Assembly (NCBI GenBank): GCA_019057795.1
Contig: JAHLWS010000050.1
Coordinates: 1 to 19,026 of the forward strand
Source of the DNA: Promethearchaeota archaeon
GTDB taxonomy: Archaea > Asgardarchaeota > Lokiarchaeia > Sigyniarchaeales > SOKP01
Direction of reading: 5' to 3'
DNA length: 19,026 bases
This document shows, piece by piece, positions 3,817 through 19,026 of this stretch (positions within the stretch are counted from its first letter, which is position 1; the number at the start of each line of letters is the position of its first letter). A model generated the notes under the pieces. It was not told the origin of the DNA and ran no database searches. It saw only the letters and a program-made list of their open reading frames with translations. Made by a program: the position numbers and the translations under genes.

Positions 3817-3842
3817 ATTTCATATAACACATTTTTAGGCGA
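3817..3842. other. attI-like tyrosine-recombinase simple site
   Basis: Plus strand ATTTCATATAA-cacattt-TTAGGCGA. Minus strand reads GCCTAAA-AATGT-GTTATAT (L box, 5 nt, R box). Confidence 0.45.
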
Positions 3843-4073
3843 GGTATACCTAATGTCCAAGTTTATTTCCTCCTTTGTTCCCATAATTGTTTGATATATC
3901 AGGTATGTAGTGGTCCTAATTTATAGTTAGTCTCTTGAGGAAATTTTAAAATTCTCATATTTGTCTAGATAATACATTTTAAAATAATGGAAAGGAAAGA
4001 CTTGGAACTAAGCCATTAAGTTATTAAGTATTATGAGTTTTAACCTATTTTTTAATACTCCTACAACATTTAT

Positions 4074-4304
4074 TTGGATTTAAATAGAGTCAAGAATTTA
4101 CCAATCGTAGCAGTTGATCCAGATATTATTCCTTTATATTCAATAGTAGAAATAGAAAATCTGGGGGCTTTTATAGCATTAGATACAGATGGACTTATAA
4201 AGGGAAATAGAATTGATATTCTTTTTCCAACAAAAAAAGAAGCTATAAATTTTGGAATTAAAAAAGAAAGGGTAAGAATCATTAAGAAAGGTATTTGTAA
4301 TTAA
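4074..4304 (+). pseudogene. 3D (Asp-Asp-Asp) domain protein, probably N-terminally truncated; phage-type
   Basis: VAVDPDIIPLYS...ALDTDGLIKGNRIDI...AINFG. The usual N-terminal part is missing and DTGG appears as DTDG. Confidence 0.7.
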
Positions 4305-4372
4305 CACCAGTTTAAAGTTAACGGTATGTTAACACGCATCTTTAGATAGTGTCAATAGTAGATTAACTAAAT

Positions 4373-4627
4373 ATGAGTAAAAACTTGAAAAGAACCAAAA
4401 AATATGCAATTTTAATAATACGAAAAGAGAGAGGAATTTCACAACAAGAACCAGCTGACAAGCTAAATATTAATAGAGCTTTAATATCCCAAATAGAAAC
4501 AGGCTTTGTTTTACCAAACTTTGATACTTTATTAAATATAGCAAGAATACTCAATTGTCTAATAACTGATCTATATCGAAAAGAAGAAATTAATTTCATT
4601 AAAGAAATAAGAAATAAGGAGGATTAA
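4373..4627 (+). CDS. Cro/XRE-family helix-turn-helix regulator, possibly degenerate
   Basis: IRKERGISQQEPADKLNINRALISQIETG...P..DTL..IA..L. Pro occupies the usual QxEL-A leucine position. Confidence 0.8.
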   Translation: MSKNLKRTKKYAILIIRKERGISQQEPADKLNINRALISQIETGFVLPNFDTLLNIARILNCLITDLYRKEEINFIKEIRNKED

Positions 4628-5232
4628 ATACCTATATCACAAAAGGTAGGTTTAGATTATTTTCCATTAGATACTGATATGGAGAAAGACGATAAAATTA
4701 CTTGAATAGAAGCTAAATATGGGATTGTGGGTTTCGGTGTAATTATAAAACTATTTAAAAAAACCTATCATAGTGATGGCTATTATTGTAATTGGAATGA
4801 GGAAATACAATTACTCTTTTCTAAAAAATAGGAGTTGATTTTGAGAAAGTTATAGAAATTGTAAATGATGCAATTAAATGGAATTTATTTGATAACAAAT
4901 TATTTAAAAAACATAAAATACTTACTTCTAAGCGAATACAAAAAACATATATTAGTGTCACATATAGAAGAAAGAAAGTAGAAATTATAAAAGAATATAT
5001 AGTAAATGGAATAAATGATTACATAAATAAAGTAAATGTATACATAAAATCAATAAATGATAGCAATAATAAACAAAGTAAAGTAAAGAATAAATATATA
5101 CATATTTTAAATTTTTGGAACTTAAAAGAAATAATGAAACATAGACCATTAAAGCCAATTCTTAAACAAATAAAAATGGCTTATAAGAAACATGGAAAAG
5201 ATAAGATAATTAAAGCTATTGAAAATTGCTAA
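4628..5232 (+). pseudogene. DUF4373 (Lin1244/Lin1753-like) phage replication initiator, disrupted
   Basis: RBS AAGGAGG then ATA. Translates to GLDYFPLDTD...KI.*IEAKYG..GFGVIIKL...GYYCNW. TGA at 4703-4705 and a frameshift in the A-run at about 4823-4828. Continues LFD...ILTSKRIQKTY...QSKVK. Confidence 0.8.
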
Positions 5233-5335
5233 ACAATCTAAAAGAAGCCCTTTTTTTCTTAATTTATCGTGCTAAACAACCATAGCAGAGATAATATTTC
5301 TCCTGGCTCTTTTTATATATCGGAGGTTATTGTAT

Positions 5336-5483
5336 ATGTCATCAAATAAACCATCCCCACCCTGTAGATATCCCCTATGCCCAGAGCTTCAATATATTTT
5401 AGGTCACAAATATCTATCTTCTATACAGATTACACCCATATATAGCCTAAAGATCTACATAAAAAGCTAAGGAAGGATAAATA
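5336..5483 (+). pseudogene. Chimeric relic: phage HNH-endonuclease N-terminus joined to a tyrosine recombinase C-terminus
   Basis: GGAGG RBS, then MSSNKPSPPCRYPLCPEL (like the MPxKPxRPCxxPGCPxL start of phage HNH proteins) running into QYILGHKYLSSIQI-(frameshift)-YTHI*PKDL (integrase LGH...TQIYTH box). Confidence 0.5.
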
Positions 5484-5644
5484 AGAAAAGAAAGATGAAG
5501 ACTTAAAAAATTTAGTAGATCAACTGATTGAACAACAGAAACTAACTATGAAAGTCTTGGAAGCTATTACTGAAAGAATAAATAAGTAATTTATAAAAAT
5601 ATATTGTTAAATAGCTTTAACAAAAGATATATTCTTACTAAAAT

Positions 5645-5668
5645 ATTTCATATAAAAATAGTTAGGCG
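5645..5668 (+). other. attI-like site, start of the GIY-YIG gene cassette
   Basis: ATTTCATATAA-aaata-GTTAGGCG. GTTAGGCG (5661) complements, with one mismatch, the R'' box CGTCTAAC (6232) after the gene. The spacer is 1 nt shorter than in the other copies. Confidence 0.6.
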
Positions 5669-5683
5669 ATATTTTGTTTAGAG

Positions 5684-6181
5684 GTGAATACTAAGATGAA
5701 TAGACACAATCAAGTGAATTGTTGCGAGGATCTTTTTACCGAATTCAAGTTTCAGGATTTGCGAAGTGCTTCTCCACCAAATAAAAGGGGAGTATATGTT
5801 TTACGAGTCAAAAAAGAGGGCAGTTCTGTAAAAGAAATAGTTGAGCAACTAAAACAGCTTGTACAAAATCTTAACTGGACATTAGTTGAAAATTATATTC
5901 TTAATCGTATCAGCCGCCTTGAAAAGATAAATCAATGTCCAATAATATACATTGGTGCTGCAGGAACTCACAAAGACAGCAAAAATACTCTGAAAGGACG
6001 GTATAAAGAATTTTCTATGCGTCATACAGTAATGTATCCTATTTGGGCTTTGCTTTATTTTGGTTGGGAATTGGAATTTGGATGGAGGGAAGAAGATGAC
6101 CCAGGAAATGTGGAAAGTCAATTAAAACAAAAATATATAGAAAGACATAAAAATAAATTACCAGCTTTGGTTAAACAATGA
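5684..6181 (+). CDS. GIY-YIG-superfamily nuclease-like protein carried on an integron cassette
   Basis: GVYVL...IIYIGAAG...LKGRY...VESQL..KY...LP. Bounded by an attI-like site and an attC. Confidence 0.65.
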   Translation: MNTKMNRHNQVNCCEDLFTEFKFQDLRSASPPNKRGVYVLRVKKEGSSVKEIVEQLKQLVQNLNWTLVENYILNRISRLEKINQCPIIYIGAAGTHKDSKNTLKGRYKEFSMRHTVMYPIWALLYFGWELEFGWREEDDPGNVESQLKQKYIERHKNKLPALVKQ

Positions 6182-6231
6182 TGAAATACAAAACAAAATG
6201 CTGCCCCCTTACGGGACTTGCACTAACTGGT

Positions 6232-6314
6232 CGTCTAACACAGCATATATGGCTCTCTTCGTTAACCCAAATTTCAGCTTCGCCAAAACCTCGTATATAC
6301 TGAAAGCGTTATAT
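6232..6314 (+). other. attC integron cassette recombination site
   Basis: R'' CGTCTAAC, L'' region CAGCATATATG (6241), L' region CGTATATACTG (6292), R' GTTATAT (6308). Imperfect palindrome of 83 bp, 50 bp after the stop codon. Confidence 0.75.
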
Positions 6315-6416
6315 GAAATTTATATAGAAATAAGTCGATGCAATAATAAGAAGAGAAAAAAATACAGGATCAATAGTTACATAAAAGCAAGATTGAAATA
6401 ATAGAGAGTATCACAA

Positions 6417-6779
6417 ATGGAAAAACCAAGATATTTTTGTCAAGAATGTAATAAAGAATTAGAACCAGATCAGAAAGTGTGTCCGGTTTGTAAAAGTAGT
6501 AAACGTCTAATAAAGAAGAAATTAGAGGGAGAAATTAAACCAAGAGGCAGTATTGGAGCGAAACAGAAACGAAAAGGTTTTAAGAGACCTCTAAAAGAGA
6601 TTATTAAGGGTTGGTTTGAAAGCGGAGACAAAAAGAAACATCCTAAAGATGTTATAAAAGAAAGGGTAATTGATAGAGAAAAAGATATATATGAAGAAAA
6701 AGTAGTTGATATAAAAACAGGTAAAACTACTCGCGATATTAAAGAACCGCTAAGTAAACATGGGACAAAGAGGAAATAG
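6417..6779 (+). CDS. Zinc-ribbon-containing hypothetical protein
   Basis: CQEC...CPVC at the N-terminus, basic central part, C-terminal RVIDREKDIYEEKVVD...TG...EPLSKH. Lies directly after the attC. Confidence 0.7.
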   Translation: MEKPRYFCQECNKELEPDQKVCPVCKSSKRLIKKKLEGEIKPRGSIGAKQKRKGFKRPLKEIIKGWFESGDKKKHPKDVIKERVIDREKDIYEEKVVDIKTGKTTRDIKEPLSKHGTKRK

Positions 6780-6838
6780 AGAAGATTAAAAATAAATGAT
6801 TCATTTATTGATTTTTATTTTAGTATAATTATTTTATT

Positions 6839-8086
6839 ATGGGCCCAATTATTATATTTGATAAATCTACTTTACAAAGCCTGAGTGTTGATGAGTCTTG
6901 TTGGCTTGAAAATTTCTTCTTAACCAACTTAACGCCAATATTTTTTATTGAGTGTTTGGCAGATTTAGAAAAACTAATAAAAGGGAACAAGACGCCTCAA
7001 CAAATGGTTTATGAATTAGCGTTAAAAACACCCCAAAGTTGGTCTTATCCAAATGTATACCATCATAGATTAATAGTTGGCGATTTACTTGGTTACAAGA
7101 CTGAAATGTCAAACCGCCCCATTATAAGAGGTGGTAAATTTAAGGTCACAACTAATGGAAGACTAGGTGTTCATTTTAATCAATTTCCAGAAGCAGAAGT
7201 TATGCAAAGATGGCAAAATATGGAATTCTTGGAAATCGAGCATAGTATTGCTAAAGAATGGAGACAATCGCTATCAAATATCAGCTTTGATAGTTTTACA
7301 GGTTTGGTAAAAAATATTATCCCACAAGGAAAGAGGTTTAAAAGCCTAGAGGAGATAAAGAATTTTGTTGACTCTTTTGTCAAAGGAGACTATAAAGATC
7401 GTCTCCATTTGGCTTTCAAAATTTTGGGAATTCCTTCTCAATTTCAATTTCATATAATAAATAGATGGCTATATGAGAAATGCCCAACCCTAAATGATTT
7501 TGCTCCTTATGCTTCTTATGTGCTAAAAGTTGATTTGTTCTTTTATCTTAGCTTGTTATCAAATTTAATCTCTGGAGATAGACCAAGCAATAAGATAGAT
7601 TTAGCCTATCTTTACTATCTTCCCTTTTGTATGGTTTTTACATCAAATGACAAACTTCATAATAAAACAGCACCTCTTTTTATGGAAAAGGGGCAAGTTT
7701 TTATTAATGGTCAAGATCTAAAATCTAACCTAAGGGTGCTAGATGATTATTATTCAAAATTTCCTGATGAGGTCAAGGATCAAGGTATAATGAAATTTGC
7801 TGTTTATCCTCCAGAGAATATAGACAATTTGGTATCGCAACTTTGGGATAAGTTTTTACCAATTTGGCGAAAACACCTAGAAGAAAAAAAATCCAAGCCC
7901 CAATTGTCTGAGAAGTCTGAAAAAGAGTTGATCCAGAGTCTTAGAAGAGATCTGAATGAGTCAATTCTTTTAGATATGTCTGTACAAGCTACAACAAATG
8001 AGGCTGACCACGTTGTATTTAAAAGAGAGGTTAGAACAAAAAAAGGGAAATGGAGAATTTTACCGCCGGAAGTTGAAAAAAAATAA
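6839..8086 (+). CDS. Hypothetical protein, probable PIN-like fold
   Basis: N-terminal IIIFDKS, E in FFIECLAD and late NKIDLAYL..LPFCMVFTSNDK match the order of PIN acidic residues. Confidence 0.55.
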   Translation: MGPIIIFDKSTLQSLSVDESCWLENFFLTNLTPIFFIECLADLEKLIKGNKTPQQMVYELALKTPQSWSYPNVYHHRLIVGDLLGYKTEMSNRPIIRGGKFKVTTNGRLGVHFNQFPEAEVMQRWQNMEFLEIEHSIAKEWRQSLSNISFDSFTGLVKNIIPQGKRFKSLEEIKNFVDSFVKGDYKDRLHLAFKILGIPSQFQFHIINRWLYEKCPTLNDFAPYASYVLKVDLFFYLSLLSNLISGDRPSNKIDLAYLYYLPFCMVFTSNDKLHNKTAPLFMEKGQVFINGQDLKSNLRVLDDYYSKFPDEVKDQGIMKFAVYPPENIDNLVSQLWDKFLPIWRKHLEEKKSKPQLSEKSEKELIQSLRRDLNESILLDMSVQATTNEADHVVFKREVRTKKGKWRILPPEVEKK

Positions 8087-8650
8087 TAAAGATAAATTGT
8101 TGAATTATTTAACAAAACAGTATTTTCTTAAAAGAAAAGATATATTTATCTTATTAAAGTAATATAAGCATTCTTTTCAGGGGAAATGCTAAGGTTGAAA
8201 ATTTTTTAAATGGCCTACATTTTATAAAGATTTTTTAAAAAATTTTTTTTATATATTTCAATAGTAATTAATTCAAGATTAATTTAAGGTAGTTCATAAA
8301 TATATAGGCGTCAATACTTTTGAAAACTTTCTTAAAGTAAGGTTTTGATTCTTTTCCCAAAAAGAAGAATAATATAATGTCTACCTCTTTTATTCAATTT
8401 CTACCATCTGGTGGTATATTATACCTAAAATTTGCACTATAATTGCACTATGTGTGGTTAGGTTCATCTTCAGCTATTTCTTATCATTTATTTTATTAAG
8501 TAATCTATTTCAATCTGTTATTCTTTATAATGAATGTAGAATAATGTAAAGAACAAAAATAAATTATTGGAAGAGCAATTAACATACCACAGATATAGTT
8601 GGAGTAGAAAATTATTTAAAAAATAATATATTAAAAATCATTAAATTAAA

Positions 8651-8674
8651 ATTTCATATAAAAACAAGTTAAAA
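8651..8674 (+). other. Orphan attI-like simple site
   Basis: ATTTCATATAAA-AACAA-GTTAAAA. Same geometry as the attI1 core (CCCTAAA-ACAAA-GTT) and the sites at 15770, 16336 and 17076. Confidence 0.5.
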
Positions 8675-8914
8675 AGTTATATTTATTTTTATAATAGGGG
8701 TATAGTATATTAAATAGCTTTAGCCTTCGCTCCCTAAACTGTGTGAATCTGTTAATTTCTGCAGTATTGCATAAGGAGGTATATTTCTTATTTCATTATA
8801 TTATCAATTATTTTGATACTATTATTAAATAATAAATTCTCAATTAATACTTTTTACTTGTCTAAAAAATAAAATTTATACTATTATATAAATAATTAAT
8901 TTGATTATAAAACC

Positions 8915-11083
8915 TTGCAACAATCTAAGCTTATGGAAAAATTTATAAAACTTAGCATTGATAGAATTAAGCTCTTTAATTTACCTATTAATGTAAAAGA
9001 TGAACAAATAGGTATAGCAATAAGTGTTAACTCAATAAAAGAAACTGAGAATGAAATTGTGATTGATATCTCATACCGGGATCAAGAATTAAATGAGGAA
9101 ACCAAACAAATAAATCTATCCTATAATAAAAATAAATTAAGTCCATATGATTATATACTTATTGGATGGATCTATATAGTATATTATTATTGTAAAAGTT
9201 TCACTGAAAAAGATGAGCATTATAAAAATACAGCAAAGGAATTTCTAATAAAATCAATTAAAAAAGGAGTTAATTCTTGTTTGCCACATTATTTACTTGC
9301 AGATTATCCGTTAAATTACATAGAAGGTATAAATCGTTTAGATAAGCTATATTTTGCCTTAGATGTTTATGATGACACCTTTCCTGATTTTTATTCTTTG
9401 GTGTATAAGGAAGACAAAAATAAAATTAGGGCTATAGGTTTATTAAAAAAAGGTTTAGAGAAATTTCCTACCAGTTTTATTTTAAATTATCACCTTTCAA
9501 ATTATCTAATCAGAAAAAAAGATTACAAGGAAGCTTTAAAATTTCTAAGAAAGATAAATTTAAAAGAATATGAAGATTATTATGGTCATAGATTTCTTGT
9601 ACATCTTTTTTATAACGTGTTTATGTGCAATATTAATCTTGGTGATTTTGATAAAGCAGAAAGAACCATAAAAGATAATGTTGTATTTAACAAATACGAG
9701 ATATCATTACTTAGGGGATTATTAGAACACCACAAGTCTGAATTTGAAGCTGCATCAAATTATTTTTTAGAATGTATTCAGAAAAATTTATCAATGTTAG
9801 TAAATTATTGCAGTTACTATTATCTTTTAGATTGTTATGTTAAATTAAAAAAATATGACCTATTAAATGATATATTAAGCGTTATTCCTGATGAGAAGAT
9901 AGATTATCTCGATTATTATTTAAATATGGTATTCCAAGATTTAGCAGAAAGTTGTTTAGAAGAAATTATTAAATTAGATATTGATGAAATGTCTATTGCA
10001 AGAGCAAAAGGTCTGTTAGCTCCAATAATTTTATATGAAAGATTGCCTAATTTTAATTATGAACCAAAAAGAATTCTTACAAAAAAAGAAAAAAATCTTT
10101 TAGAAAAAACAGAGTCACTAATTAAAGATACCCTAAATTTTTATCCAATTAATCAGTTTTTCCTAACAACTTTTTCAGATGTATTATTCCTTAAGGGTAA
10201 ATTTGATGAGTCTATGATTGTGAAGTTGAAAAGTTTGGAATGTAGGATTTATAACCAAGTTTCTGAAGCGTATACAAATATCTCTTTAGAAAACTGTACC
10301 GAAACATTTATAAAGAATTATAAAAACCGAATAGAAGAAATATTCTCTGAAAAGAAAAAATTAAAAGAAATTTATGTAAAAGAGCAACTTCCATTAGATA
10401 TAAAAGATTTATTTAGTATGAAAAGATATGATGTAATAAACAATTTATATTTTTACCTTAGAGAAGATATAGATTTTGACAATTCAGATTACCTTTTTGA
10501 GATTGCATATTCCTTAAAGGAGGAAGAATATGTTGATGAAGCAGAAATTATCTATAACAAGATTTTAGAAAGAGAACCCAAGAATACTTCAGTATTAAAC
10601 AACCTAGCTATAATATTTGAGAAAAAAGGAGAATTAGATAAAGCAATAGATTTAATAAAAACAGCAAAGGATTTAGATCAAAAAGACACTGTTATAATCA
10701 ATAATTTTAATAGAATTACAGGTCTGGTTAAACATAAGAAGGGAAAGAAAAGGAAAATAAATTTTGAAATAAAGCAAAAACCAAAATTACATTTTGACAC
10801 TGAAAAAAGTAGAATTTTTTATGGTAATAAATTTTGTGAAATTCCTATTAGTACTTATGAATATTATTTATGTAAGGCAATTTTTTCTAAACCATTAGGG
10901 ACTAAAATATCAGAAGAAGAGATTTTTGAGGTTTTGGATAGAGCTAAGCTAGTAGAAAGAAGTAGAACAATTTATGATACTTGCCTAAGGATTAATAAAA
11001 AAGTAGAAAGTAGTATAGGTTTAAAAAAAATACTAATAAATAGAGGCGCTATGATTTGGATTAGAGATGAATTTATAAAGTGA
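8915..11083 (+). CDS. TPR-repeat protein with C-terminal winged-helix (OmpR/PhoB-like) DNA-binding domain
   Basis: TPR motifs such as EAEIIYNKILEREPKNTSVLNNLAIIFEKKGELDKAIDLIKTA. C-terminal FD...IFYG..CEIP...YYLCKAIF...RTIYDTCLRINKKV. True start may be the ATG at 8933. Confidence 0.75.
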   Translation: MQQSKLMEKFIKLSIDRIKLFNLPINVKDEQIGIAISVNSIKETENEIVIDISYRDQELNEETKQINLSYNKNKLSPYDYILIGWIYIVYYYCKSFTEKDEHYKNTAKEFLIKSIKKGVNSCLPHYLLADYPLNYIEGINRLDKLYFALDVYDDTFPDFYSLVYKEDKNKIRAIGLLKKGLEKFPTSFILNYHLSNYLIRKKDYKEALKFLRKINLKEYEDYYGHRFLVHLFYNVFMCNINLGDFDKAERTIKDNVVFNKYEISLLRGLLEHHKSEFEAASNYFLECIQKNLSMLVNYCSYYYLLDCYVKLKKYDLLNDILSVIPDEKIDYLDYYLNMVFQDLAESCLEEIIKLDIDEMSIARAKGLLAPIILYERLPNFNYEPKRILTKKEKNLLEKTESLIKDTLNFYPINQFFLTTFSDVLFLKGKFDESMIVKLKSLECRIYNQVSEAYTNISLENCTETFIKNYKNRIEEIFSEKKKLKEIYVKEQLPLDIKDLFSMKRYDVINNLYFYLREDIDFDNSDYLFEIAYSLKEEEYVDEAEIIYNKILEREPKNTSVLNNLAIIFEKKGELDKAIDLIKTAKDLDQKDTVIINNFNRITGLVKHKKGKKRKINFEIKQKPKLHFDTEKSRIFYGNKFCEIPISTYEYYLCKAIFSKPLGTKISEEEIFEVLDRAKLVERSRTIYDTCLRINKKVESSIGLKKILINRGAMIWIRDEFIK

Positions 11084-11128
11084 CTCAATTGACTCACTAA
11101 CTAACTCAAAATATTCAAACTTGACTCA
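11081..11128 (+). repeat. Four direct T(G/A)ACTCA heptamers, operator- or iteron-like
   Basis: TGACTCA at 11081, 11090 and 11122; TAACTCA at 11102; inverted copy TGAGTTA at 11176. Confidence 0.65.
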
Positions 11129-11140
11129 CATTAAATAAAG

Positions 11141-11174
11141 ATAGACTCTTATAAAAAGAGTCTATTTTTATTTT
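11141..11174 (+). terminator. Perfect 10-bp hairpin followed by a T-rich tract; intrinsic terminator and/or Rep nick-site hairpin
   Basis: ATAGACTCTT-ATAAA-AAGAGTCTAT followed by TTTTATTTT. Confidence 0.6.
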
Positions 11175-11187
11175 ATGAGTTAAAGAT

Positions 11188-11352
11188 ATGGATCACAATA
11201 TATATCAAAAATTATATAAAAAAGAATTAAAGAAGGAAGAAAAATTTGAAATTGAAAATAATTTATTTGGATTTTTCGAGCTTCTTATTGAAATTAACAA
11301 GGAACTAGAGAAAGATGATAGACACAATAGTACTAACAATTCCAAAAAGTAA
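11188..11352 (+). CDS. 54-aa protein overlapping the rep start (not in the ORF track)
   Basis: MDHNIYQKLYKKELKKEEKFEIENNLFGFFELLIEINKELEKDDRHNSTNNSKK. The EIxxNLxGFFELL helix resembles small ORFs I recall upstream of island serine recombinases. Confidence 0.6.
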   Translation: MDHNIYQKLYKKELKKEEKFEIENNLFGFFELLIEINKELEKDDRHNSTNNSKK

Positions 11353-12469
11353 ATATACTATTATTAATTATGATAGATTTAGTCCTTCTACAAGAGGGCT
11401 TTTTGAAAGCCCCTACTATAATTTAGGTGCAAGGAATAATTTTTCATGTAAACAAAACCCAACTAAAAAAGATTTTTTAAGTGGAATATACAAACCCAGG
11501 TTAACTGTTACCAAAAGGGTAAGAAAAGGCGGTTATGTAACACCTTTAAGAATTGAATTTTCAATACCAAAGCTTATATTTTCAAACAATTTTGATGAGA
11601 TCCAAGAAAATGATTTTGAACTGGTTATAAAGAAATTAAAAGAAAGATTAAAGGATATGGAGATACTTATAAAAGAAAGCGACCTCACAAATGCCAACGT
11701 ATCATCAATTCATTTTTCAAAAAATATAGCTCTAACTGATTATTCAAGTTGTTCAATGGTTATAAATGACCTAGCAAAAATTAATTTAACCAAAAGGTTG
11801 GATTTAAATAAAACTTCTTTTAGAAATGGAGGTCAGGTTATTCATTATCACTCTAACTCATATGAAATTGCTATATATAATAAAATAAAAGACTTAGAGA
11901 AGGCAAAAATAAGTGAAAAGAGATCCATAGAAAAAGATAATATTATTCAAATAAACCTATTAGATAATTTAAATAAAAAAAAGCCATTTGAAGTTTTAAG
12001 AATAGAGGTTAGACTAAATGATAGAAATAAAATTAAAAGGCTCTTAAAACGCCTAAATATAGCCCTAGAATCTACTTTTGTAAACCTTTTTAACCAAGAT
12101 ATATCTGAAAGCATATTAACTTATTTCTGGGATGAAATTATAAAAAATACTCGCTTTTTATCTATAGATACCAGAGAACCATTTAAATTACTTGAAATAA
12201 TAATTAAAAATAATCCTAATATAAAAAACTCAAAAGCTTTGAAGTTACTTGCTTCCATTATTGTTATGCAAAATGCTGGAGCTAGAAATTTCAGAAATTT
12301 GATCAATAATAGCTCTAGAAACAACAGATTCTGGTATAGTCTCAAGAAAGAAATAAAACAACTAAGTTTACCTATGGATAGTAGATATAACTCTATTACT
12401 GAAATAAGTAAATTAATTAGAAGTTTTAAACCATTAAAGTTAAAATATCATCAATTAGAAAGAATCTAA
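11315..12469 (+). CDS. Phage/plasmid rolling-circle replication initiator, gene II/X (Phage_CRI / Rep_trans-like) family
   Basis: Motif order MIDT...IEFSIPKLIFSNNF...VSSIHFSKN...IAIYNKIKD...VLRIEVRL. Confidence 0.65.
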   Translation: MIDTIVLTIPKSKYTIINYDRFSPSTRGLFESPYYNLGARNNFSCKQNPTKKDFLSGIYKPRLTVTKRVRKGGYVTPLRIEFSIPKLIFSNNFDEIQENDFELVIKKLKERLKDMEILIKESDLTNANVSSIHFSKNIALTDYSSCSMVINDLAKINLTKRLDLNKTSFRNGGQVIHYHSNSYEIAIYNKIKDLEKAKISEKRSIEKDNIIQINLLDNLNKKKPFEVLRIEVRLNDRNKIKRLLKRLNIALESTFVNLFNQDISESILTYFWDEIIKNTRFLSIDTREPFKLLEIIIKNNPNIKNSKALKLLASIIVMQNAGARNFRNLINNSSRNNRFWYSLKKEIKQLSLPMDSRYNSITEISKLIRSFKPLKLKYHQLERI

Positions 12470-12480
12470 AAAGTAAATAT

Positions 12481-12759
12481 GGGAATATTAGAGCATTTTT
12501 TAAAAGAATATTGGATAATAAAAGTAAAATCACAGGATATATTGAAGAAAAGCATCCAAATATTAAATAATCAGACTTTATTGAAAACAGGGAACAAATA
12601 CAAAGATACATAGAAGCTTTTTCAAATTTTATTTTGGCTAATTAATAAAAGATCATATATATTAATGAAGAACAATTTTTCAATAGTATAAGTAAAGAAG
12701 TTTGTAATTATTATATTGTAGGCTATCAGGTTATAACTAAATGGTTTTAAGACAGAAGG
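12481..12759 (+). pseudogene. Collapsed Type ISP/IIG restriction-modification gene: nuclease N-terminal fragment joined to C-terminal specificity fragment
   Basis: KITGYIEEKHP..*SDFIENREQIQRYIEAFSNFILAN, then IYINEEQFFNSISKEVCNYYIVGYQVITKWF*DRR. These resemble the GYIEAK...EQLxRY...NLILTN and YIN..QYF...VW...IGGYQV..KWLKDRK motifs. Confidence 0.65.
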
Positions 12760-12766
12760 AGTAAAA

Positions 12767-14305
12767 ATGAAAGCAATAATACTTGCCAGAGTATCAACAA
12801 AAGAACAAAAAGAATTAGGTCATTCTTTACCTGCCCAAGTTATAAAACTTAAAGAATATGCACAAAAAAAAGGTTTTGAAGTTATAAAAGTATTTTCATT
12901 TTCTGAAACTGCTGGAAAAAAGATAAGAAAAAGATTTGAAGAGGTAAAAAAATATTTTAGGAAAAATAAGGATGTCAAAGTTCTTCTAGCTCAAAATGTG
13001 GATAGAGCAACAAGAAATTTTAGGGATGCAGTTGATTTAGATGATATGAGAATAAATGAAGGACTTGAAATACACTTTGTTCAAGATGGCTTTTATATTA
13101 ATGCTGAATCAACAGGAAGCCAGCTATTTATGTGGGAAGCAAAAGTATTTTTGGCAAAGCAATATATAAATAGATTATCTGATGATGTTAAAAGAAGCAT
13201 TGAGCAGAAAATTAGAAATGGTGAATGGACAAGCAAAGCACCAATAGGCTATTTAAATGTAAAAGATGAGATAACTGGCAAAAATACAATTATTTTAGAT
13301 AAAAAAAGATCATTTCTAATAAGAAAAGCTTTTGAAGAATATTCTACTGGCATTTACTCATTAAAAGAGATTACATCTAATTTAAAAAAATACGGACTAA
13401 GAGCAAACACAAAAAGTAATAAACCATTACATAAAAGTGCTGTTTATAAAATGATAAATAATCCTTTTTACTATGGTTATATGAGAATAAAGAATAAGCT
13501 ATACCCTCATAAATATGAGCCAATTATAACTAAATATCTATTTGATAAATGTCAAGAAGTAATTAATAGCTATTCTAAAAAACCATTTAAGTATTCTGCA
13601 AAACCATTCATATTTAGAGGTCTCATTAAATGTGCTTATTGTGGATGCACAATTAGCTCAGATAAAAAGAAGAACAAATATATTTACTTATCATGTTCGA
13701 AGTATAAAGGTAATTGCGACTCGATAAGAGTTAGAGAAGAAGTTATCCTAGAGCAAATAAAAGATATTTTTGAAAATATCCAAATCCCAAAAAGAATATT
13801 AGAAGATGTTAGAGAGTATCTAATTAAGACAAATGATTCTAAAAGGAAATTTCAAAAATGCGAAGAAAAACAAATACGCGAAGAATATAATAAAATTCAA
13901 AGAAAACTAGATAGATTACTTGATATGGAACTTAATGAGAGTATTACTCAAGATGAGTATGATAAAAAAGCCTATCAATTAAAGCAAAGACAATATGAAT
14001 TAAATGAAAGACAAAAACAATATATAGAAGCAGATGAAGAGTTCTCTTTTACGCTCATAAACCTTATGGAATTAGCCTCTAGAGCCTATGAATTATTTGA
14101 ATTTTCGAAAGTAGAACAAAAAAGAAAACTAATAAATTTCGTACTTTCGAACTTAAAATTAAAGGGTAAAACATTAGAATTTGAGCCTAGAAAACCCTTT
14201 AATGTCTTCATAAATCTTAAAAATGCTAAAAACCGTTCTGTTTGGCTGGGGAGAGAGGACTCGAACCTCTGCTTGTGGATCCAAAGTCCACCGTCCTACC
14301 ACTAG
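12767..14305 (+). CDS. Large serine recombinase (resolvase, recombinase, zinc ribbon and coiled-coil domains)
   Basis: ARVSTKEQ with catalytic Ser10, DRATRN, APIGY, NPFYYG, FRGLIKCAYCG...YLSC...C. RBS AAGGAG. Confidence 0.95.
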   Translation: MKAIILARVSTKEQKELGHSLPAQVIKLKEYAQKKGFEVIKVFSFSETAGKKIRKRFEEVKKYFRKNKDVKVLLAQNVDRATRNFRDAVDLDDMRINEGLEIHFVQDGFYINAESTGSQLFMWEAKVFLAKQYINRLSDDVKRSIEQKIRNGEWTSKAPIGYLNVKDEITGKNTIILDKKRSFLIRKAFEEYSTGIYSLKEITSNLKKYGLRANTKSNKPLHKSAVYKMINNPFYYGYMRIKNKLYPHKYEPIITKYLFDKCQEVINSYSKKPFKYSAKPFIFRGLIKCAYCGCTISSDKKKNKYIYLSCSKYKGNCDSIRVREEVILEQIKDIFENIQIPKRILEDVREYLIKTNDSKRKFQKCEEKQIREEYNKIQRKLDRLLDMELNESITQDEYDKKAYQLKQRQYELNERQKQYIEADEEFSFTLINLMELASRAYELFEFSKVEQKRKLINFVLSNLKLKGKTLEFEPRKPFNVFINLKNAKNRSVWLGREDSNLCLWIQSPPSYH

Positions 14306-14316
14306 ACGACTCCCCA
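14243..14316 (-). tRNA. tRNA-Gln (anticodon TTG), CCA encoded
   Basis: Reverse complement TGGGGAGTCGTCTAGTGGTAGGACGGTGGACTTTGGATCCACAAGCAGAGGTTCGAGTCCTCTCTCCCCAGCCA folds as a cloverleaf. Anticodon at 14284-14282, T-loop GGTTCGAGTCC. Confidence 0.97.
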
Positions 14317-14413
14317 ATAAGATTTAGATTAAATTATATTTATTTTTAATTTAGGATTTTTTATTGGGTAATTTTATATCTAAAGATAGTATATCAAAAA
14401 AAATTGAAATATT

Positions 14414-14575
14414 TTACTTTGTAAAAATCATATGTAAGGATATTAGAAATAAAGCAAACCCAAATAATTTTCTTAATATTTCACTTGATAATCCAATAGC
14501 TATCTTTGCATCAATTAAACCACTAATAGTACCTGATAATAATCCAATCAGTATATAAAGAATAATGTTAACCAT
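14414..14575 (-). pseudogene. TauE/SafE (TSUP) family membrane protein with an internal deletion
   Basis: AAGGAG RBS. MVNIILYILIGLLSGTISGLI joined to DAKIAIGLSSEILRKLFGFALFLISLHMIFTK. The family N- and C-termini are fused and the GIGGG region is missing. Confidence 0.6.
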
Positions 14576-14871
14576 ATTCTTTCTCCTTTAATTTTTAATT
14601 GAATTGCATTTCTTTAGATTAAAAAATGTATTACAGATTATACAACCTAATTAATATATGTCAAAAATTTTAAATTTTAAAGAATCACAAAGTCAATATG
14701 AAAAAGAGTTAATTATTTTCTGGATTAAGTATTAAGAAAATAATGATTTTTTGACTCCTAATGAATTCTTCTGAAGGTGTTATAAGTGAAGTTCATACTT
14801 GTAAATAAATTATTAAATAATTATGTATAATTAATCTAAAAAATGGGTGGTGAAATTTACTCAGCTGCACT

Positions 14872-15182
14872 TTTGAAAATTTATCAAATAGTTCAAAAAC
14901 TGGAAGAATGTACTTCAGAATTGAAGGAGTGCACGGTATTAGCTCGGTAGATGTTAAAAGTGGTAAAGGTGAAGCTAAATTAGGAGGGGGGCAAGCCTTG
15001 ATTGAGTGTTAATAGTAGAAGGCAGCTGTATGAAAGAAAGCACGTGGGAGCATAATATAAGACAACGACTAACCGATAAAATAGGTATAGCAGCATTTGC
15101 CACTACTCCTAAAGGGAAAATATGGATACACAAATTATATGATGAAAAGAGAAGTCTCTGCAGGCATTATTATGTGGTGTAG
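14872..15182 (+). pseudogene. Phage terminase large subunit ATPase fragment
   Basis: SSVDVKSG...GGGQ, frameshift, then LD*VLIVEGSCMKESTWEHNIRQRLTDKIGIAAFATTPKGKIW. Resembles the RG.GLD..hhDE Walker B, IRPxLxD and TPKG.NW motifs. Confidence 0.55.
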
Positions 15183-15211
15183 ACTAACTAACATGCCCCT
15201 GTGTCATACAG

Positions 15212-15355
15212 CAGCTAACATTCCTGGCGTTGGATTAGCCCTCTATGCACAGGCTGATAAGTAACTTCTGCACGCCAAGACACTCTATTAAAAATGTTTT
15301 TTACCCACTGATAAGGAGCGAGTTTGTGCGTCAGTTGTCAGCAGCTTGTTAAGGG
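15212..15355 (-). other. Degenerate or mosaic attC-like region
   Basis: Minus strand CCCTTAAC-aagctgctgacaactgacgc (attC-like left arm) and ggaatGTTAGCTG (R'-like). The arms pair poorly with each other. Confidence 0.35.
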
Positions 15356-15443
15356 AAGCAGTTGCATTCATTGTTCATGTTTGAGTGATCCTGACATTGA
15401 CAAGCTCATCTACAGCATATGTATTAGTAAGGCTGGTGGACTT

Positions 15444-15671
15444 TCACGGTTGCCAAGTGGGGCTACCATCAGACGCAGGGTTGTTCGTTAACCTAGTCTG
15501 TTGCGAGCCATCAGAATTCATTACGTAGATTTCAGCGTTGCCATCGCGTCCGGAGATGAAGGCAATACGACTTCTAATAGATGGTTTTTCTGGAACACAA
15601 CTAACTATTAAAATAATCGCAATCACCAACACCACGAAGAGTGTCAAAACTCTTAAATTTTTTGTGTTCAT
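15444..15671 (-). CDS. Short lipoprotein with one TolB/PD40-like repeat; first cassette of the left platform
   Basis: Signal peptide with lipobox IVSC, then [34 protein letters not shown]. Confidence 0.7.
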
Positions 15672-15763
15672 CTTTATTATGATTTATTATCTAATTTCTT
15701 GCGAAATAATTTGATTCCGACCTTTAAATATTTTACCTTTTTCAAGGTGAGGTTCGGAACTTC

Positions 15764-15791
15764 AAATAACTCGGTTTTATACGAAATGTTT
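15764..15791 (-). other. attI-like site of the left integron platform
   Basis: Minus strand aaacATTTCGTATAAA-ACCGA-GTTATTT. The crossover G (15770) is 115 bp from the relic integrase start. Confidence 0.7.
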
Positions 15792-15884
15792 TCTTTATAA
15801 CAACACTAACTTATATATTATACAGAATATATAAAAATTATCTTATAGTTTAAACTGTTTAAATTTTAACAAATCCATAAAATT

Positions 15885-15950
15885 ATATAAAATTATCTGA
15901 AACAAATCGAAATAGAGTTAAAACTTAGAAATTACAGCTTAAAAACTATC
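15885..15950 (+). pseudogene. 5' stub of an integron-type tyrosine integrase
   Basis: ATA TAA AAT TAT, translating as (I*)NYLKQIEIELKLRNYSLKTI. Homologous to QKQLNQTEKELRLRNYSPKTV of the relic at 16961. Confidence 0.7.
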
Positions 15951-16314
15951 GGAAAGGTGGAAGGGAGTTAAAACCATACTTTGTATATCAAAAATGCTCT
16001 ATAGGTAAGGTTCTATTTACATTTAATTCAACCTAAACCATAAAAGGCATAGAAAAATAAAGACAGGTAATCTAATATTAATCCAATGTGGGAGTTAAAC
16101 CCCACTCCCATAATTTAGCAATAACATTGTCTACCATAGTATATATTTTTAGTAAATATTTATATAAATACGTATACATTTCAGTAGTTTTGTATATATT
16201 TTTATATTGACAAAAAATAAAAAATTTATGTATCTGAGAGAGAGGTAAAAGTTATCTGATAATAACGCGATGGTGCAACCCTTTTAATAGTATGATATTA
16301 AAAACTATCATATT

Positions 16315-16342
16315 AAACATTTCATATAAAAATTAGTTAAGT
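16315..16342 (+). other. Orphan attI-like simple site
   Basis: aaacATTTCATATAAA-AATTA-GTTAAGT. Shares the upstream AAACA with the two integrase-linked sites. Confidence 0.55.
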
Positions 16343-16434
16343 AAAATTGCAGTTTTTTAACTAAAAGGGGAGATTATATAGAGATATAAAATTATTTTTT
16401 ATTAGAATGGTAACCAATATAGGGAGATGAAAAA

Positions 16435-16515
16435 ATGAAAAGTAAAAAAAAGAAAAAGTTAGATAGACTAAGACATAGAAAACGAGAAAAAAAGAAAAGA
16501 AAAGGTAAAAAATGA
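16435..16515 (+). CDS. 26-aa Lys/Arg-rich peptide
   Basis: MKSKKKKKLDRLRHRKREKKKRKGKK with GGGAG upstream. Confidence 0.3.
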   Translation: MKSKKKKKLDRLRHRKREKKKRKGKK

Positions 16516-16580
16516 ATAAAAAAATATTTATTTATTTTTATAAAAAGGGGTATAGGGGTATAAATACCTGTGGCTTTCAC

Positions 16581-16961
16581 TCCATAGGCTAGCGAAAGTA
16601 AAAGTTTATGTTTTGTGTTCTTAGTTGCCTTTATTACTTTTTCAATTTCGTTCCTTGAGAGAATGACCGGAAGTTTCTTTTTTCTCTTTGCAGACCGTAT
16701 ATCGATCTTTTGGTTTGTTTTTATAACATTGCGGTAGAAAAACTTTATTGCGTTTAAGAATAGATTGTGTGTTTGGGCAGAAGCACCATCTTTTTGTTTT
16801 TGAAGTAGAAAATCTTTAATGTTTTCAATATCCAAAACTTCAAGACGCCGCTTTTTAAAGTTAAAATATTCCTCGAGAGCGTAAAGATAGCTTTTAACTG
16901 TTTTAGGACTATAGTTGCGAAGCCTGAGTTCCTTTTCTGTTTGATTTAGTTGCTTTTGTAT
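16581..16961 (-). pseudogene. Truncated integron-type tyrosine integrase (SAM-like N-terminal domain; catalytic domain lost)
   Basis: The frame extends up to ATA at 16961: QKQLNQTEKELRLRNYSPKTVKSY...SAQTHNLFLNAIKFFY...KKLPVILSRNEI...KHKLLLSLAYG. It breaks just before the catalytic GLR. The rest of ORF 16392-16580 is read-through. Confidence 0.85.
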
Positions 16962-17054
16962 AATCGGAAAAAATTTGTTAAAGTTAAAACAACTATGTAA
17001 AATATTAGTTTAACAGATTTTTGTATAACACACAATTAAGACATAAAATTGCGA

Positions 17055-17087
17055 AAACAGTTCGTATAAAAACGAGTTATACGAAAT
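17055..17087 (+). other. attI-like site of the right integron platform
   Basis: aaacagTTCGTATAAA-AACGA-GTTATACGAA. The crossover G (17076) is 115 bp from the relic integrase start. Confidence 0.75.
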
Positions 17088-17132
17088 AAAATGTCTGCAT
17101 GAAAGAGGTATTATATAGATATTATTTTAATT

Positions 17133-17672
17133 ATGTTTATTGCATTTGGATTAGCAATGGATGCTTTCGCTGTATCTATCACAAGTGGATTAACAATTAA
17201 ATCCTTGAAAATTAATAATGCTTTAAGGATTGCAATATTTTTTGGGTTATTTCAGGCGATTATGCCATTAATTGGGTGGTTAGCAGGACTTAGCTTCCGA
17301 GATTTTATTTCAGGCGTTGACCATTGGATAGCTTTTGGACTTCTAAGCATAATAGGCTGTAAAATGATTTATGAATCATCTAAAATGGAGTTAAGCAACA
17401 AGAGAATAAATCCGCTGAATGTTTATGTTCTGCTGATGTTATCTTTTGCAACAAGTATCGATGCTTTGGCTGTTGGTTTAAGCCTATCATTCTTAAACGT
17501 TTCCATTGCACTACCTGCAATAATAATTGGAATTGTAACATTTTTACTATCGATTTTTGGTGTTTATCTTGGTAATAGATTTGGACACTATTTTGAAAGA
17601 AAAATCGAAATAATCGGTGGTTTAATTTTAATTGGTATTGGAATAAAAATATTAATTGAGCACTTAACCTAA
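17133..17672 (+). CDS. mntP: Manganese efflux pump MntP family protein (cassette 1)
   Basis: GLAMDAFAVS, FGLFQAIMP, DHWIAF, ATSIDALAVG, EIIGGLILIGIG. The RBS-aligned start is ATA at 17115. Confidence 0.93.
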   Translation: MFIAFGLAMDAFAVSITSGLTIKSLKINNALRIAIFFGLFQAIMPLIGWLAGLSFRDFISGVDHWIAFGLLSIIGCKMIYESSKMELSNKRINPLNVYVLLMLSFATSIDALAVGLSLSFLNVSIALPAIIIGIVTFLLSIFGVYLGNRFGHYFERKIEIIGGLILIGIGIKILIEHLT

Positions 17673-17689
17673 AGGGCGACAGTTTAGAT

Positions 17690-17781
17690 CATATAACACG
17701 GTGTATGCGGTTCGGGTTAATGACCTTACTGAAATGCTCAGCTTTGCCTCGCACTTCGCATATACCCAGAACATTATACGC
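17690..17781 (+). other. attC site with R' mutated from GTT to ATT
   Basis: R'' CATATAAC, L'' GGTGTATGCG, L' CGCATATACC, R' ATTATACGC. Starts 17 bp after the mntP stop. Confidence 0.75.
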
Positions 17782-17831
17782 AAGCGGCTTCGTGACACCA
17801 AAATAAGAAAATTTAAAAATAGTAAACAATT

Positions 17832-18464
17832 ATGATAGGTGATAAGAAAATGAACAAACAAATATTTCTAAAATGGCTTAAAATTAACAGTTTATGTTTC
17901 ATAGGTGCCTTTATTGCAGTATTCCTTTTGGTCCAATTATTTCCCAATATCATGCTCGGATTTCTAGGAGGATGGACTACTTTAATAGAGATGACAGGAG
18001 CTAAGAAGATGGCAGAACTTCCTTCCAGGTTTGATGCATTCATTCATACACTTTCCAGAAACAGCGTCTCGATCATTATTGTTTTTATCACTGCACTACT
18101 CTTGCAGGCACCAATTTTGATGGTAGTGTTTGGTTCATTCTATTCTCTTATAGCTTTTCTTGCCCCGCTAACGATTGGAAAAACATTCGCTCTTTTCGAT
18201 TGGATTCTAATTGCAACCGAAGCACTTTTCTTTATTGTAACTGCCACTTTTGCATCAACTCTTGCTACGGAAGTATTTGGAGTAAAACCAGAGAAAAAAC
18301 AGATATTAGAGTATTGGAAAAAAAATTGGAAGAAGTTACTTCCTGAGCAAAAAAGAAGTTGGAGGATTGTGTTCAAAGAAAACATGAAAGAATTTACCTT
18401 TTTCATCATAATAATTTTAGCATTACTCATATTTGGAGCATGTTTTGAAGTTTGGGGTTATTGA
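17832..18464 (+). CDS. Integral membrane protein, SpoIIM (DUF95)-like (cassette 2)
   Basis: Several hydrophobic helices, FIH...RN, a mid-helix Glu and C-terminal LLIFGACFEV. Likely start at 17850 after AGGTGA. Confidence 0.55.
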   Translation: MIGDKKMNKQIFLKWLKINSLCFIGAFIAVFLLVQLFPNIMLGFLGGWTTLIEMTGAKKMAELPSRFDAFIHTLSRNSVSIIIVFITALLLQAPILMVVFGSFYSLIAFLAPLTIGKTFALFDWILIATEALFFIVTATFASTLATEVFGVKPEKKQILEYWKKNWKKLLPEQKRSWRIVFKENMKEFTFFIIIILALLIFGACFEVWGY

Positions 18465-18536
18465 AATGGAAAGAAGTCAAATGGTGTCCCTTCGCTGACT
18501 CTTCGGAATGCTTCGCATTCCTTTTCCCTATCGGGA

Positions 18537-18560
18537 GCGTATAACATCGGAAGTATGGGA
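18537..18560 (+). other. Collapsed attC remnant
   Basis: R'' GCGTATAAC complements the cassette 2 start (G)TTATACGC. The internal arms are missing. Confidence 0.5.
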
Positions 18561-18637
18561 ACAATTTCCAAATTTGCTTCGTCTAAAATGTAATTATTAT
18601 TATTAACCCAATACTTAACTCATAAGGAGGTTCAGAA

Positions 18638-19026
18638 ATATCGAAAAAGCTGGAAGAGCGCATGAACGTAATCGCTGTGTTGCTAGCAGTTTTGGTTCTA
18701 CTAGCTAACTGCAGACCTCCAGGAGAGATCAAGCTGGACGCTGGTAACAATGGCAGCCAGATCGAGATTGAGCAAGGTCAAATCCTGGTCATTACATTGG
18801 AGGCTAATCCCACTACTGGTTATACGTGGGAAATGATCGAAGGCGAGGAACAAATCCTGCAGCAAGTAGGAGAAATTGAGTTTCAACCGGATTCTAAGTT
18901 AATAGGCGCTCCAGGTATACAGACCCTGCGTTTAGAGGCTGTTAATGTAGGAAAGATAACTCTCAAATTGATATACCACCGACCCTGGGAAGAGAATGTG
19001 GACCCACTAGAAACCTTCTCTGTCCA
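18638..19026 (+). CDS. Protease inhibitor I42 (chagasin family) lipoprotein, running off the window end
   Basis: NPTTGYTW, IGAPG and YHRPWE motifs; lipobox LANC. AAGGAGG precedes ATA at 18638, with an in-frame ATG at 18662. Confidence 0.88.
   Translation, partial: MSKKLEERMNVIAVLLAVLVLLANCRPPGEIKLDAGNNGSQIEIEQGQILVITLEANPTTGYTWEMIEGEEQILQQVGEIEFQPDSKLIGAPGIQTLRLEAVNVGKITLKLIYHRPWEENVDPLETFSV

Follow-up and report, generated by a model that had tools for sequence, protein, structure and literature searches.

Multiple attI-like insertion sites beside decayed recombinase genes: a probable integron-like cassette system on a contig binned with an Asgard archaeon

The stretch of DNA analysed here (the window) is the whole of contig JAHLWS010000050.1 (C50), 19,026 nucleotides long with a G+C content of 28%, which is one of the 87 contigs of a 4.95-Mb bin assigned to a Promethearchaeota archaeon (GCA_019057795.1). 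It contains fragments of tyrosine recombinase genes, gene cassettes, a tRNA-Gln gene and a large serine recombinase element (Table 1 and below), and it carries dispersed copies of a short motif, TTC(G/A)TATAAA-N5-GTTA (searched as TTCRTATAAA-N5-GTTA). The motif is probably the conserved left arm and spacer of the attI-equivalent, i.e., the insertion site, of an integron-like cassette system whose recombinases have decayed at this locus. A preliminary description of the window had reported six such sites, most of them lacking a working recombinase gene beside them, and all six are present as described: four exact matches at 8653(+), 15785-15767(-), 16321(+) and 17061(+) (sites A, D, B and C, respectively), a copy at 5647 that lacks one base (site E) and a variant at 3819 with two mismatches (site F). 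No match was found in 200 dinucleotide-preserving shuffles of the window, and the exact motif is absent from the remaining 86 contigs of the bin (~4.93 Mb), which contradicts the possibility that the count merely follows the AT-rich background. In 134 other genomes of the bin's taxonomic family, the motif occurs at ~0.45 copies per genome, which is the rate of the reversed-pattern control. Since the matches are all on C50 while relatives show the background rate, the clustering is real.

The six sites are unequal in quality, and F is doubtful. A 24-nt weight matrix trained on other genomes only (minimum training score 16.7) recovers C (33.4) and D (28.1) strongly and places B (19.9) within the training range, whereas A (14.2) falls below the minimum, F scores below 8 on the plus strand and 12.2 on the minus strand, and E is missed because of its 1-nt deletion. 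A hidden Markov model (HMM) of attI, built from 42 loci of other genomes, aligns with the whole of C (E 9e-12 within the window, 2.4e-9 genome-wide) as well as D (E 1.2e-7 and 3.1e-5, respectively), and its match to A and B is confined to the last 20-24 positions. One additional match, at C56:9403-9431 (E 0.35), lies within a coding region and was taken as chance. The 11-nt arm ATTTCATATAA has six exact occurrences in the window, the sixth of which, at 7447-7457, is followed by TAAATAG-AT within a 415-aa open reading frame (ORF; 6839-8086); it resembles the arm and spacer of E, yet is probably due to chance. The arm of F is identical to those of E, A and B, and the TTAGGCGA that follows its spacer is a common cassette start; F may be a junction scar. 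The attC model described below has no match between F and E, and tblastn found no recombinase C-terminus on the minus strand at F.

As the preliminary description had noted, two of the sites are tied to integrase-like relics, namely C and D, each of which has the start of a relic at a distance of ~100-115 nt. The closest full-length relatives of relic 1 are proteins of 270-274 aa with up to 82% identity over the relic, and they are found overwhelmingly in metagenome-assembled genomes (MAGs) of Patescibacteria. The window copies are N-terminal relics, and the presence of the insertion typical of the integron integrase IntI was judged from these homologs. With the XerA-type model NF040815 (cut-off 220 bits), the homologs P0002 and P0003 score 222.1 and 225.1 bits and P0010 falls just below with 214.5 bits; the relic of the window, being truncated, reaches 61.9 bits. 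With the integron-integrase model TIGR02249, full-length homologs reach 210-224 bits (cut-off 265), the match being divided into two stretches with the IntI insertion left out between them, and with PRK15417 they reach 137-144 bits against a cut-off of 435. The closest solved structures by sequence are VchIntIA (2A3V, E 9e-47, again matched in two stretches) and XerA (4A8E). To judge from these matches, the recombinase is an IntI/XerA-like enzyme without the insertion that defines IntI.

In other genomes, the insertion site accompanies the intact gene. At one locus (L037), the core stands ~100 nt before the start codon of an intact homolog, with the position and flank that it has at C. More generally, a core within five mismatches of the left half of C is found at 57 of 59 loci with intact homologs, 46-134 nt (mostly 60-134 nt) from the gene start, and an accessory repeat of the TTCGTATAAYATACAA type lies upstream of the core. 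The family site is conserved up to G|TT and variable beyond, where the right arm retains TTRNNNNAAAT. Several family contigs terminate exactly at the crossover, as would be expected where a population carries different inserts. Indeed, at least seven contigs with a 270-aa gene (those of loci L050, L052, L075, L079, L086, L102 and L109) end a few bases from the AAC|T crossover, which suggests that first-cassette variation within populations disrupts their assembly. The weight matrix places the site upstream of the recombinase gene at 58 of 73 family loci (643 kb). On many Patescibacteria platforms (L046, L053, L084, L098 and L105), the first 150-250 nt past attI are occupied by a first cassette devoid of any ORF, whose start pairs with an R'' box 10-40 nt away over a conserved loop of the CGCTCCGCTC type, followed by a long nested hairpin. 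Searches of the available literature collection found no published description of integron-like systems in bacteria of the candidate phyla radiation.

The anatomy of the cassettes can likewise be read from loci of the family, 80 of which served to derive the attI and attC structure. At 24 of 37 loci of other genomes, the ten bases that follow the crossover recur as their reverse complement within 3 kb, against 13% when control starts were borrowed from other loci. A strict cassette walker returned 33 candidate cassette ends, of which 28 passed a pairing filter. These attC sites share one layout, in which an R'' box (...AAC) and, 1-3 nt further on, the L'' stem are followed by a variable part, the L' stem and, after another 4-7 nt, G|TT. 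Alignment of 21 of the 28 gives a 12-bp stem with seven covarying pairs, although such pair counts are inflated by a training selection that demanded L''/L' pairing. A loose attC finder that permits G-T pairs yielded AT-rich noise only.

The covariance model built from this alignment contains sequences of other genomes only and none from the window. On the plus strand of the window, it matches 6230-6311 (54.3 bits, E 1.6e-10) and 17688-17776 (45.3 bits, E 1.7e-8), i.e., on the correct strand and at the predicted ends of cassettes e1 and c1, and it gives a third, weak match at 18536-18593 (10.5 bits). Over the whole bin, an attC sequence HMM detects only the two strong window sites. The R'' box of the e1 attC, CGTCTAAC, is complementary to the start of e1, and that of c2, GCGTATAAC, is the perfect complement of c2's own start. 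Removal of e1 in silico joins ATTTCATATAA-AAATAG to TTATATGAAAT and thereby restores a perfect 11-6-11 palindrome. Two sites, E and C, therefore head complete cassettes, where the preliminary description had counted a single one. The 165-aa ORF of e1 has no Pfam match. The mntP gene of c1 shares, over window positions 17114-17666, 64-66% DNA identity with the chromosomal mntP of the bin (G000:C58:2597-3153) and of two other genomes of the same genus, G104 and G122, which could reflect common ancestry or just conservation combined with AT bias.

Natural variation shows that the first cassette at C differs between relatives, with junctions precisely at the predicted crossover. The comparison rests on a Candidatus Humimicrobiia (Actinomycetota) MAG of 1.6 Mb, here called G154, and on a metagenome contig, JRER01003340. 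The 100-kb contig C18 of G154 carries the same truncated relic and attI as window positions 16516-17087 (97% identity), and its attI is directly followed by c2 (C18:91514-92235 corresponds to window 17774-18495, 98.8%), so that in a three-way alignment mntP is missing exactly between both predicted crossovers. JRER01003340 is 96% identical to window positions 16862-17088, lacks c1 and continues past G|TT with a third cassette, which starts with TTAGGCGACAT and possesses its own attC (31.7 bits). The docking unit of C is hence found with three different first cassettes in three natural sequences, every junction being at G|TT. The neighbouring recombinase gene is dead in all three sequences that share the left half of C. 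Because the window and G154 share the truncation point, the mntP difference postdates the truncation, and a cassette change after truncation favours recombination supplied in trans. The third downstream cassette, c3, is 95% identical to G154 C6:25962-26444, where it stands in a different context.

The individual units of the window differ in their state of preservation. The core of C is a perfect palindrome. D abuts a hairpin and a decayed PD40-repeat gene. A, B, C and D share an AAAGRGG...ATAT element ~30 nt downstream. A and B are paralogous, variant units (type 2) whose common left flank, GATATTAAAAAC..TATTAAA, recurs in G154 at C4:9946 and C7:178736. The B module is ~99% identical to a segment of G154 contig C4, where it lies between different flanks; the 26-codon lysine/arginine-rich mini-ORF MKSKKKKKLDRLRHRKREKKKRKGKK found after B (16437-16517) is, together with its leader, likewise ~99% conserved there. 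A and B are preceded by a conserved 75-nt element (8552-8626 at A), of which G154 has at least three further copies (C18:87881, C13:82 and C4 near 10000) and whose translation resembles the C-terminus of a protein (..LLEEQLTY..SW..KLFKK stop), and a decayed CTTCGCTCC motif is found 70 nt past A (8725-8745). E has no accessory repeat and, compared with the full unit at G154 C16:29028, looks as if ~50 nt had been deleted; its right arm TTATATGAAAT also occurs at two apparently empty G154 units, C16:40742 and C7:186373. The decayed 3' end of the short-recombinase relic extends to a stop ~55 nt before E, and window positions 5381-5633 have four copies of 80-86% identity on contig C16 of G154; a short recombinase gene overlaps one of them with its 3' end.

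In relic 1, the start codon (16959-16961) is ATA where all homologs have ATG; the ATA is shared by the G154 copy (C18:91398), in which a stop follows in frame four codons later. DNA alignment with three intact genes shows no homology past 16578. A putative C-terminal relic at 16147-16306(-), which had weak tblastn support only, was rejected on this ground.

Table 1. Sites, cassettes and recombinase relics of the window
Feature	Position	Strand	Description
Site F	3817-3844	ambiguous	11-nt arm ATTTCATATAA, 7-nt spacer, then TTAGGCGA; two mismatches to motif
Short tyrosine recombinase relic (208-242-aa type)	5384-5431	+	LLGH...Y region; tblastn with 242-aa G154 recombinase, E 0.009, 62% identity
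Site E, left half	5645-5661	+	arm ATTTCATATAA, spacer AAATAG; crossover after G5661
Cassette e1	5662-6308	+	starts TTAGGCGAT; ORF 5684-6181 (165 aa); attC 6230-6311
Site E, right arm	6309-6319	+	TTATATGAAAT; displaced by cassette e1
Site A	8647-8670	+	type-2 attI-like unit; exact motif; crossover after G8668
Site D	15768-15825	-	full attI unit (accessory repeat and simple site); crossover between 15770 and 15769
Recombinase relic 2	15897-15950	+	residues 5-22, possibly up to ~40; belongs to D; tblastn E 0.005, 78% identity
B module	16303-16535	+	type-2 attI-like unit; 24-mer 16315-16338; crossover after G16336; plus mini-ORF
Recombinase relic 1	16578-16961	-	residues 1-128 of ~270; 81% identity to P0002, E 6e-65; cut after LAYG
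Site C	16996-17078	+	full attI unit; crossover between G17076 and T17077
Cassette c1	17077-17773	+	mntP, ORF 17133-17672, Pfam Mntp 6.6e-55; attC 17688-17776
Cassette c2	17774 to ~18590	+	210-aa membrane protein, ORF 17832-18464; degenerate attC 18536-18593
Cassette c3	18591-19026 (start uncertain)	+	chagasin-family peptidase inhibitor, Pfam Inhibitor_I42 9e-23; runs off contig

The relative G154 carries many more units. A 20-nt version of the site gives 16 matches in its genome against one for the control, and 12 units drawn from the 20-nt pattern scan and the weight-matrix scan could be aligned, of which ~9 comprise an accessory repeat and a core and two more are of type 2, i.e., at least 11 attI units. 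Their left halves are conserved and their right halves diverge from G|TT onward. On G154 contig C7, five co-oriented sites, three of them with a full accessory repeat, are interleaved with attC sites within 14 kb. Two short tyrosine recombinases are intact in G154, one of 242 aa and one of 208 aa; the gene of the latter is co-oriented with, and ~110 nt upstream of, the attI unit C16:288931. Fragments covering residues 124-161 of a recombinase catalytic domain are found at G154 C16:40568-40680 and C13:78445-78557, co-oriented with attI units and just upstream of them; they begin at LAYxAGLR, the position at which relic 1 of the window is truncated.

Altogether, these findings are consistent with a model in which the full site consists of an upstream accessory repeat followed by a near-palindromic core, made of an 11-nt arm, a 6-7-nt spacer and a second 11-nt arm, and in which strand exchange at G|TT would be carried out by compact ~270-aa XerA/IntI-like tyrosine recombinases. 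A cassette begins with TT and a right-arm-like sequence and ends in an attC-like site, whose R'' box is predicted to pair with the first bases of the cassette while the L'' and L' boxes form the covarying stem. C and D represent two platforms arranged tail to tail, both with decayed recombinase genes. The identity of the sites, the structure of cassettes and attC, the exact G|TT junctions and the natural variation of cassettes are seen directly in the sequences. As to how the units multiplied and which enzyme acts on them, we infer that platforms or attI-bearing modules were deposited repeatedly, and that their recombinase genes eroded and left the attI units behind. Such repeated deposition and erosion was one of two scenarios raised in the preliminary description, and it fits the decayed state of C and D as well as the 16 matches and at least 11 aligned units of G154. 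The orphan units may be usable in trans, either by the enzyme of a neighbouring platform before its decay or by a short recombinase like those of G154. The other scenario, a distributed integron served in trans, is supported in part: C at least changed cassettes after the truncation of the gene beside it, yet the system is not a canonical integron, its recombinase being of ~270 aa without the IntI insertion.

Extending this model further is tentative. It is conceivable, if rather doubtful, that in the Humimicrobiia lineage, one of small genomes, the attI unit has become a multi-copy element that can do without a recombinase gene beside it, that cassettes turn over at units whose genes are dead, and that short recombinases of ~208-242 aa, consisting of little beyond the catalytic domain and encoded co-oriented upstream of some units, act in trans, the whole forming a distributed capture network in place of one integron per locus. 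There are at least 11 units in 1.6 Mb in G154 and five or six in 13 kb on C50.

Several results weigh against the main interpretation, in which the motif belongs to the insertion site of a cassette system. The search for an intact recombinase, advocated in the preliminary description, found no intact cognate 270-aa copy in the window, the bin or G154, nor in the 134 other genomes of the bin's family or in four further genomes of the order of G154. The attC model has no match after A, B, D or F, whose use as landing sites is thus only putative. The 73 family loci (643 kb) have one site or none each, without extras; with 58 primary sites and no additional ones, several sites in one place are unusual for the family, and the multiplicity on C50 would seem to require a special explanation. 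Folding of native intergenic regions revealed no significant hairpins, a null result explained by the fact that the R' partner of a cassette sits at its own start and not after its attC. The inflated pair counts of the attC alignment belong here as well. Finally, the loss of mntP in G154 could result from deletion between the 9-nt direct repeats TTATACG(A/C)A that flank c1.

Among the alternatives, the one that fares best, although we consider it unlikely, concerns the extra units (A, B, E, F and many in G154), which would be inert scars produced by ordinary duplication and homologous recombination of the attI region of one platform and would never have served as landing sites. Indeed, A and B share flanks on either side of the crossover, the borders of the ~99% identical B module do not fall on G|TT in either of the two genomes, and no attC follows A, B or D. 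However, at E a complete cassette sits precisely at G|TT and the arm that it displaced reappears on its far side, and the right halves of the G154 units vary from G|TT while the left halves are conserved, which is predicted by site-specific exchange and not by simple duplication.

There is also a slight chance that the sites are dif-like Xer sites and the intervening segments modules moved by the housekeeping XerC/XerD recombinases, as in integrative mobile elements exploiting Xer (IMEX) or pdif modules. The 11-nt inverted arms with a 6-7-nt spacer recall dif, E forming a perfect 11-6-11 palindrome, the recombinase family scores just above the cut-off of the XerA model, G154 encodes two XerC/D-size recombinases, and the sites are mostly in direct orientation, 0.7-7.7 kb apart. 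Yet G154 has its own canonical dif-like site elsewhere (C13:36212), whose XerD arm is different, the family site stands directly upstream of a dedicated 270-aa gene at 58 of 73 loci, and the cassettes end in folded attC-type sites with a covarying stem, unlike Xer modules. That the motif is an AT-rich repeat due to chance, or acts as a promoter or operator and has nothing to do with recombination, is very improbable: the low G+C content of the contig, the downstream element shared by A-D and the operator-like palindromic core of C would suit it, but neither the empty shuffles and remaining 4.93 Mb of the bin nor natural variants that break exactly at G|TT are compatible with it.

Several results bear on whose DNA this is. 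The tRNA-Gln(UUG) of the window (14243-14316) has a U1-A72 pair and an encoded CCA end, which we take to be the bacterial type, and the bin holds a separate tRNA-Gln of archaeal type with A1-U72. A 37-nt stretch of the former has a single match in the genome collection, in the Candidatus Humimicrobiia MAG, in which the tRNA flank 14242-14849 is ~95% identical; in total, seven segments of C50, about one-third of the contig, are 88-99% identical to this MAG, whereas among 41 other genomes of the bin's genus only mntP matches C50, with 64-66% identity. Tetranucleotide usage places C50 in the lowest 3.7% of equal-sized chunks of the bin, which is suggestive only, and the contamination estimate of the bin is 7.5%. 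From these comparisons, C50 is probably a mis-binned bacterial (Humimicrobiia-like) contig and not Asgard DNA; because the tRNA and about one-third of the sequence point to such a source, it is unsuitable as evidence on Asgard archaea. That the system could be a canonical IntI integron of an Asgard archaeon has accordingly almost nothing to recommend it, even though Asgard MAGs show an enrichment of integrons (PMC9668308), an IntI exceeding the model cut-off exists in one genome of the bin's genus (G142) and the best NCBIfam match of the relic is the IntI model, given that the 270-aa homologs stay below the 265-bit cut-off and skip the IntI insertion, that no genome of the bin's family carries the recombinase and that the tRNA-Gln and the seven shared segments are of bacterial kind.

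The integrase of G142 is canonical (276 bits, cut-off 265; L006, G142:C116:508-2603, gene 1044-2094 on the minus strand), and a 92-aa GIY-YIG ORF interrupts its gene between HAGCHTF and RHSFATHLL, in what looks like a homing-endonuclease or intron-type insertion. In the window, the tRNA-Gln is the target of a large serine recombinase element, with the same arrangement at G154 C13, and it is not a hotspot for the cassette platform, contrary to what the preliminary description had supposed. This element (8915-14305) is 92-93% conserved in G154 C13 (9488-12583), with a different cargo to its left (9.3 kb in G154 C13 versus 2.5 kb in the window); a second copy of its right end, at G154 C18:96659-96963, is joined to a different flank and may be an alternative integration site or an attP-like junction. 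Near the left end of the contig (1087-1977, 2924-3712 region), an EVE/NucS-like PD-(D/E)XK nuclease fusion is accompanied by a protein whose similarity to the TIR domain of CAP12/Pycsar effectors is weak and below threshold, and together they look like a small defence island.

If recombination in trans were confirmed, automated integron detection would miss a whole class of cassette systems, and the number of landing sites per genome could far exceed one. In that case, extant intermediates would also allow the descent of IntI from Xer-like enzymes to be put to the test.

By definition, an integron has an integrase with a special insertion and a single attI per platform. The system described here appears, from sequence comparison, to work like an integron while falling outside integrons as currently defined. 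As in integrons, e.g., the chromosomal integron of Vibrio cholerae or those of archaea (PMC9668308), a tyrosine recombinase gene is divergent from an insertion site with accessory repeats, crossover falls on the G|TT within a GTTRRRY-like box, single-gene cassettes terminate in imperfect palindromes, the initial 6-9 bases of each cassette are complementary to the R'' box of the attC that it carries, some cassettes have no ORF and first cassettes vary among close relatives. Both an attI next to the gene with crossover at G|TT and the R''/R' and L''/L' pairing of attC are thus found, and the IntI insertion is not. Unlike in integrons, the recombinase is of ~270 aa, lacks that insertion and scores below the IntI cut-off, the attI core is a near-perfect 11-nt palindrome, the L boxes of attC are conserved in sequence (GTATAT / ATATAC), and the attI units are multi-copy and mostly without a recombinase gene, whereas an integron has one attI adjoining intI.

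Single-recombinase Xer/dif systems (archaeal XerA; XerS/difSL) resemble it in recombinase size, in the match to the XerA model and in the 11-nt inverted arms. The difSL site adjoins the xerS gene, and here too the site adjoins the recombinase gene. Xer-exploiting modules (IMEX, Acinetobacter pdif) are similarly bounded by repeated simple sites. The differences are that the site receives cassettes with folded attC-type sites, that right arms vary from G|TT, that the spacer is mostly 7 nt and that G154 has a separate canonical dif-like site. Of the units in the window, E fits the 28-nt 11-6-11 layout of dif, while the spacer of A, B, C and D comes to 7 nt when their arms are counted as 11 nt, and instead of one site per replicon there are five to six in 13 kb here and 16 in G154. 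Compared with the 73 ordinary loci of the recombinase family, mostly from Patescibacteria, C50 is distinguished by decayed recombinase genes, by attI units that are several in number and of two subtypes, and by a further recombinase type that is short and co-oriented. Novel aspects of C50 are that its attI units are multiplied and orphaned, that cassettes turn over next to dead recombinase genes, that a second, short type of recombinase occurs and that the host likely belongs to Actinomycetota.

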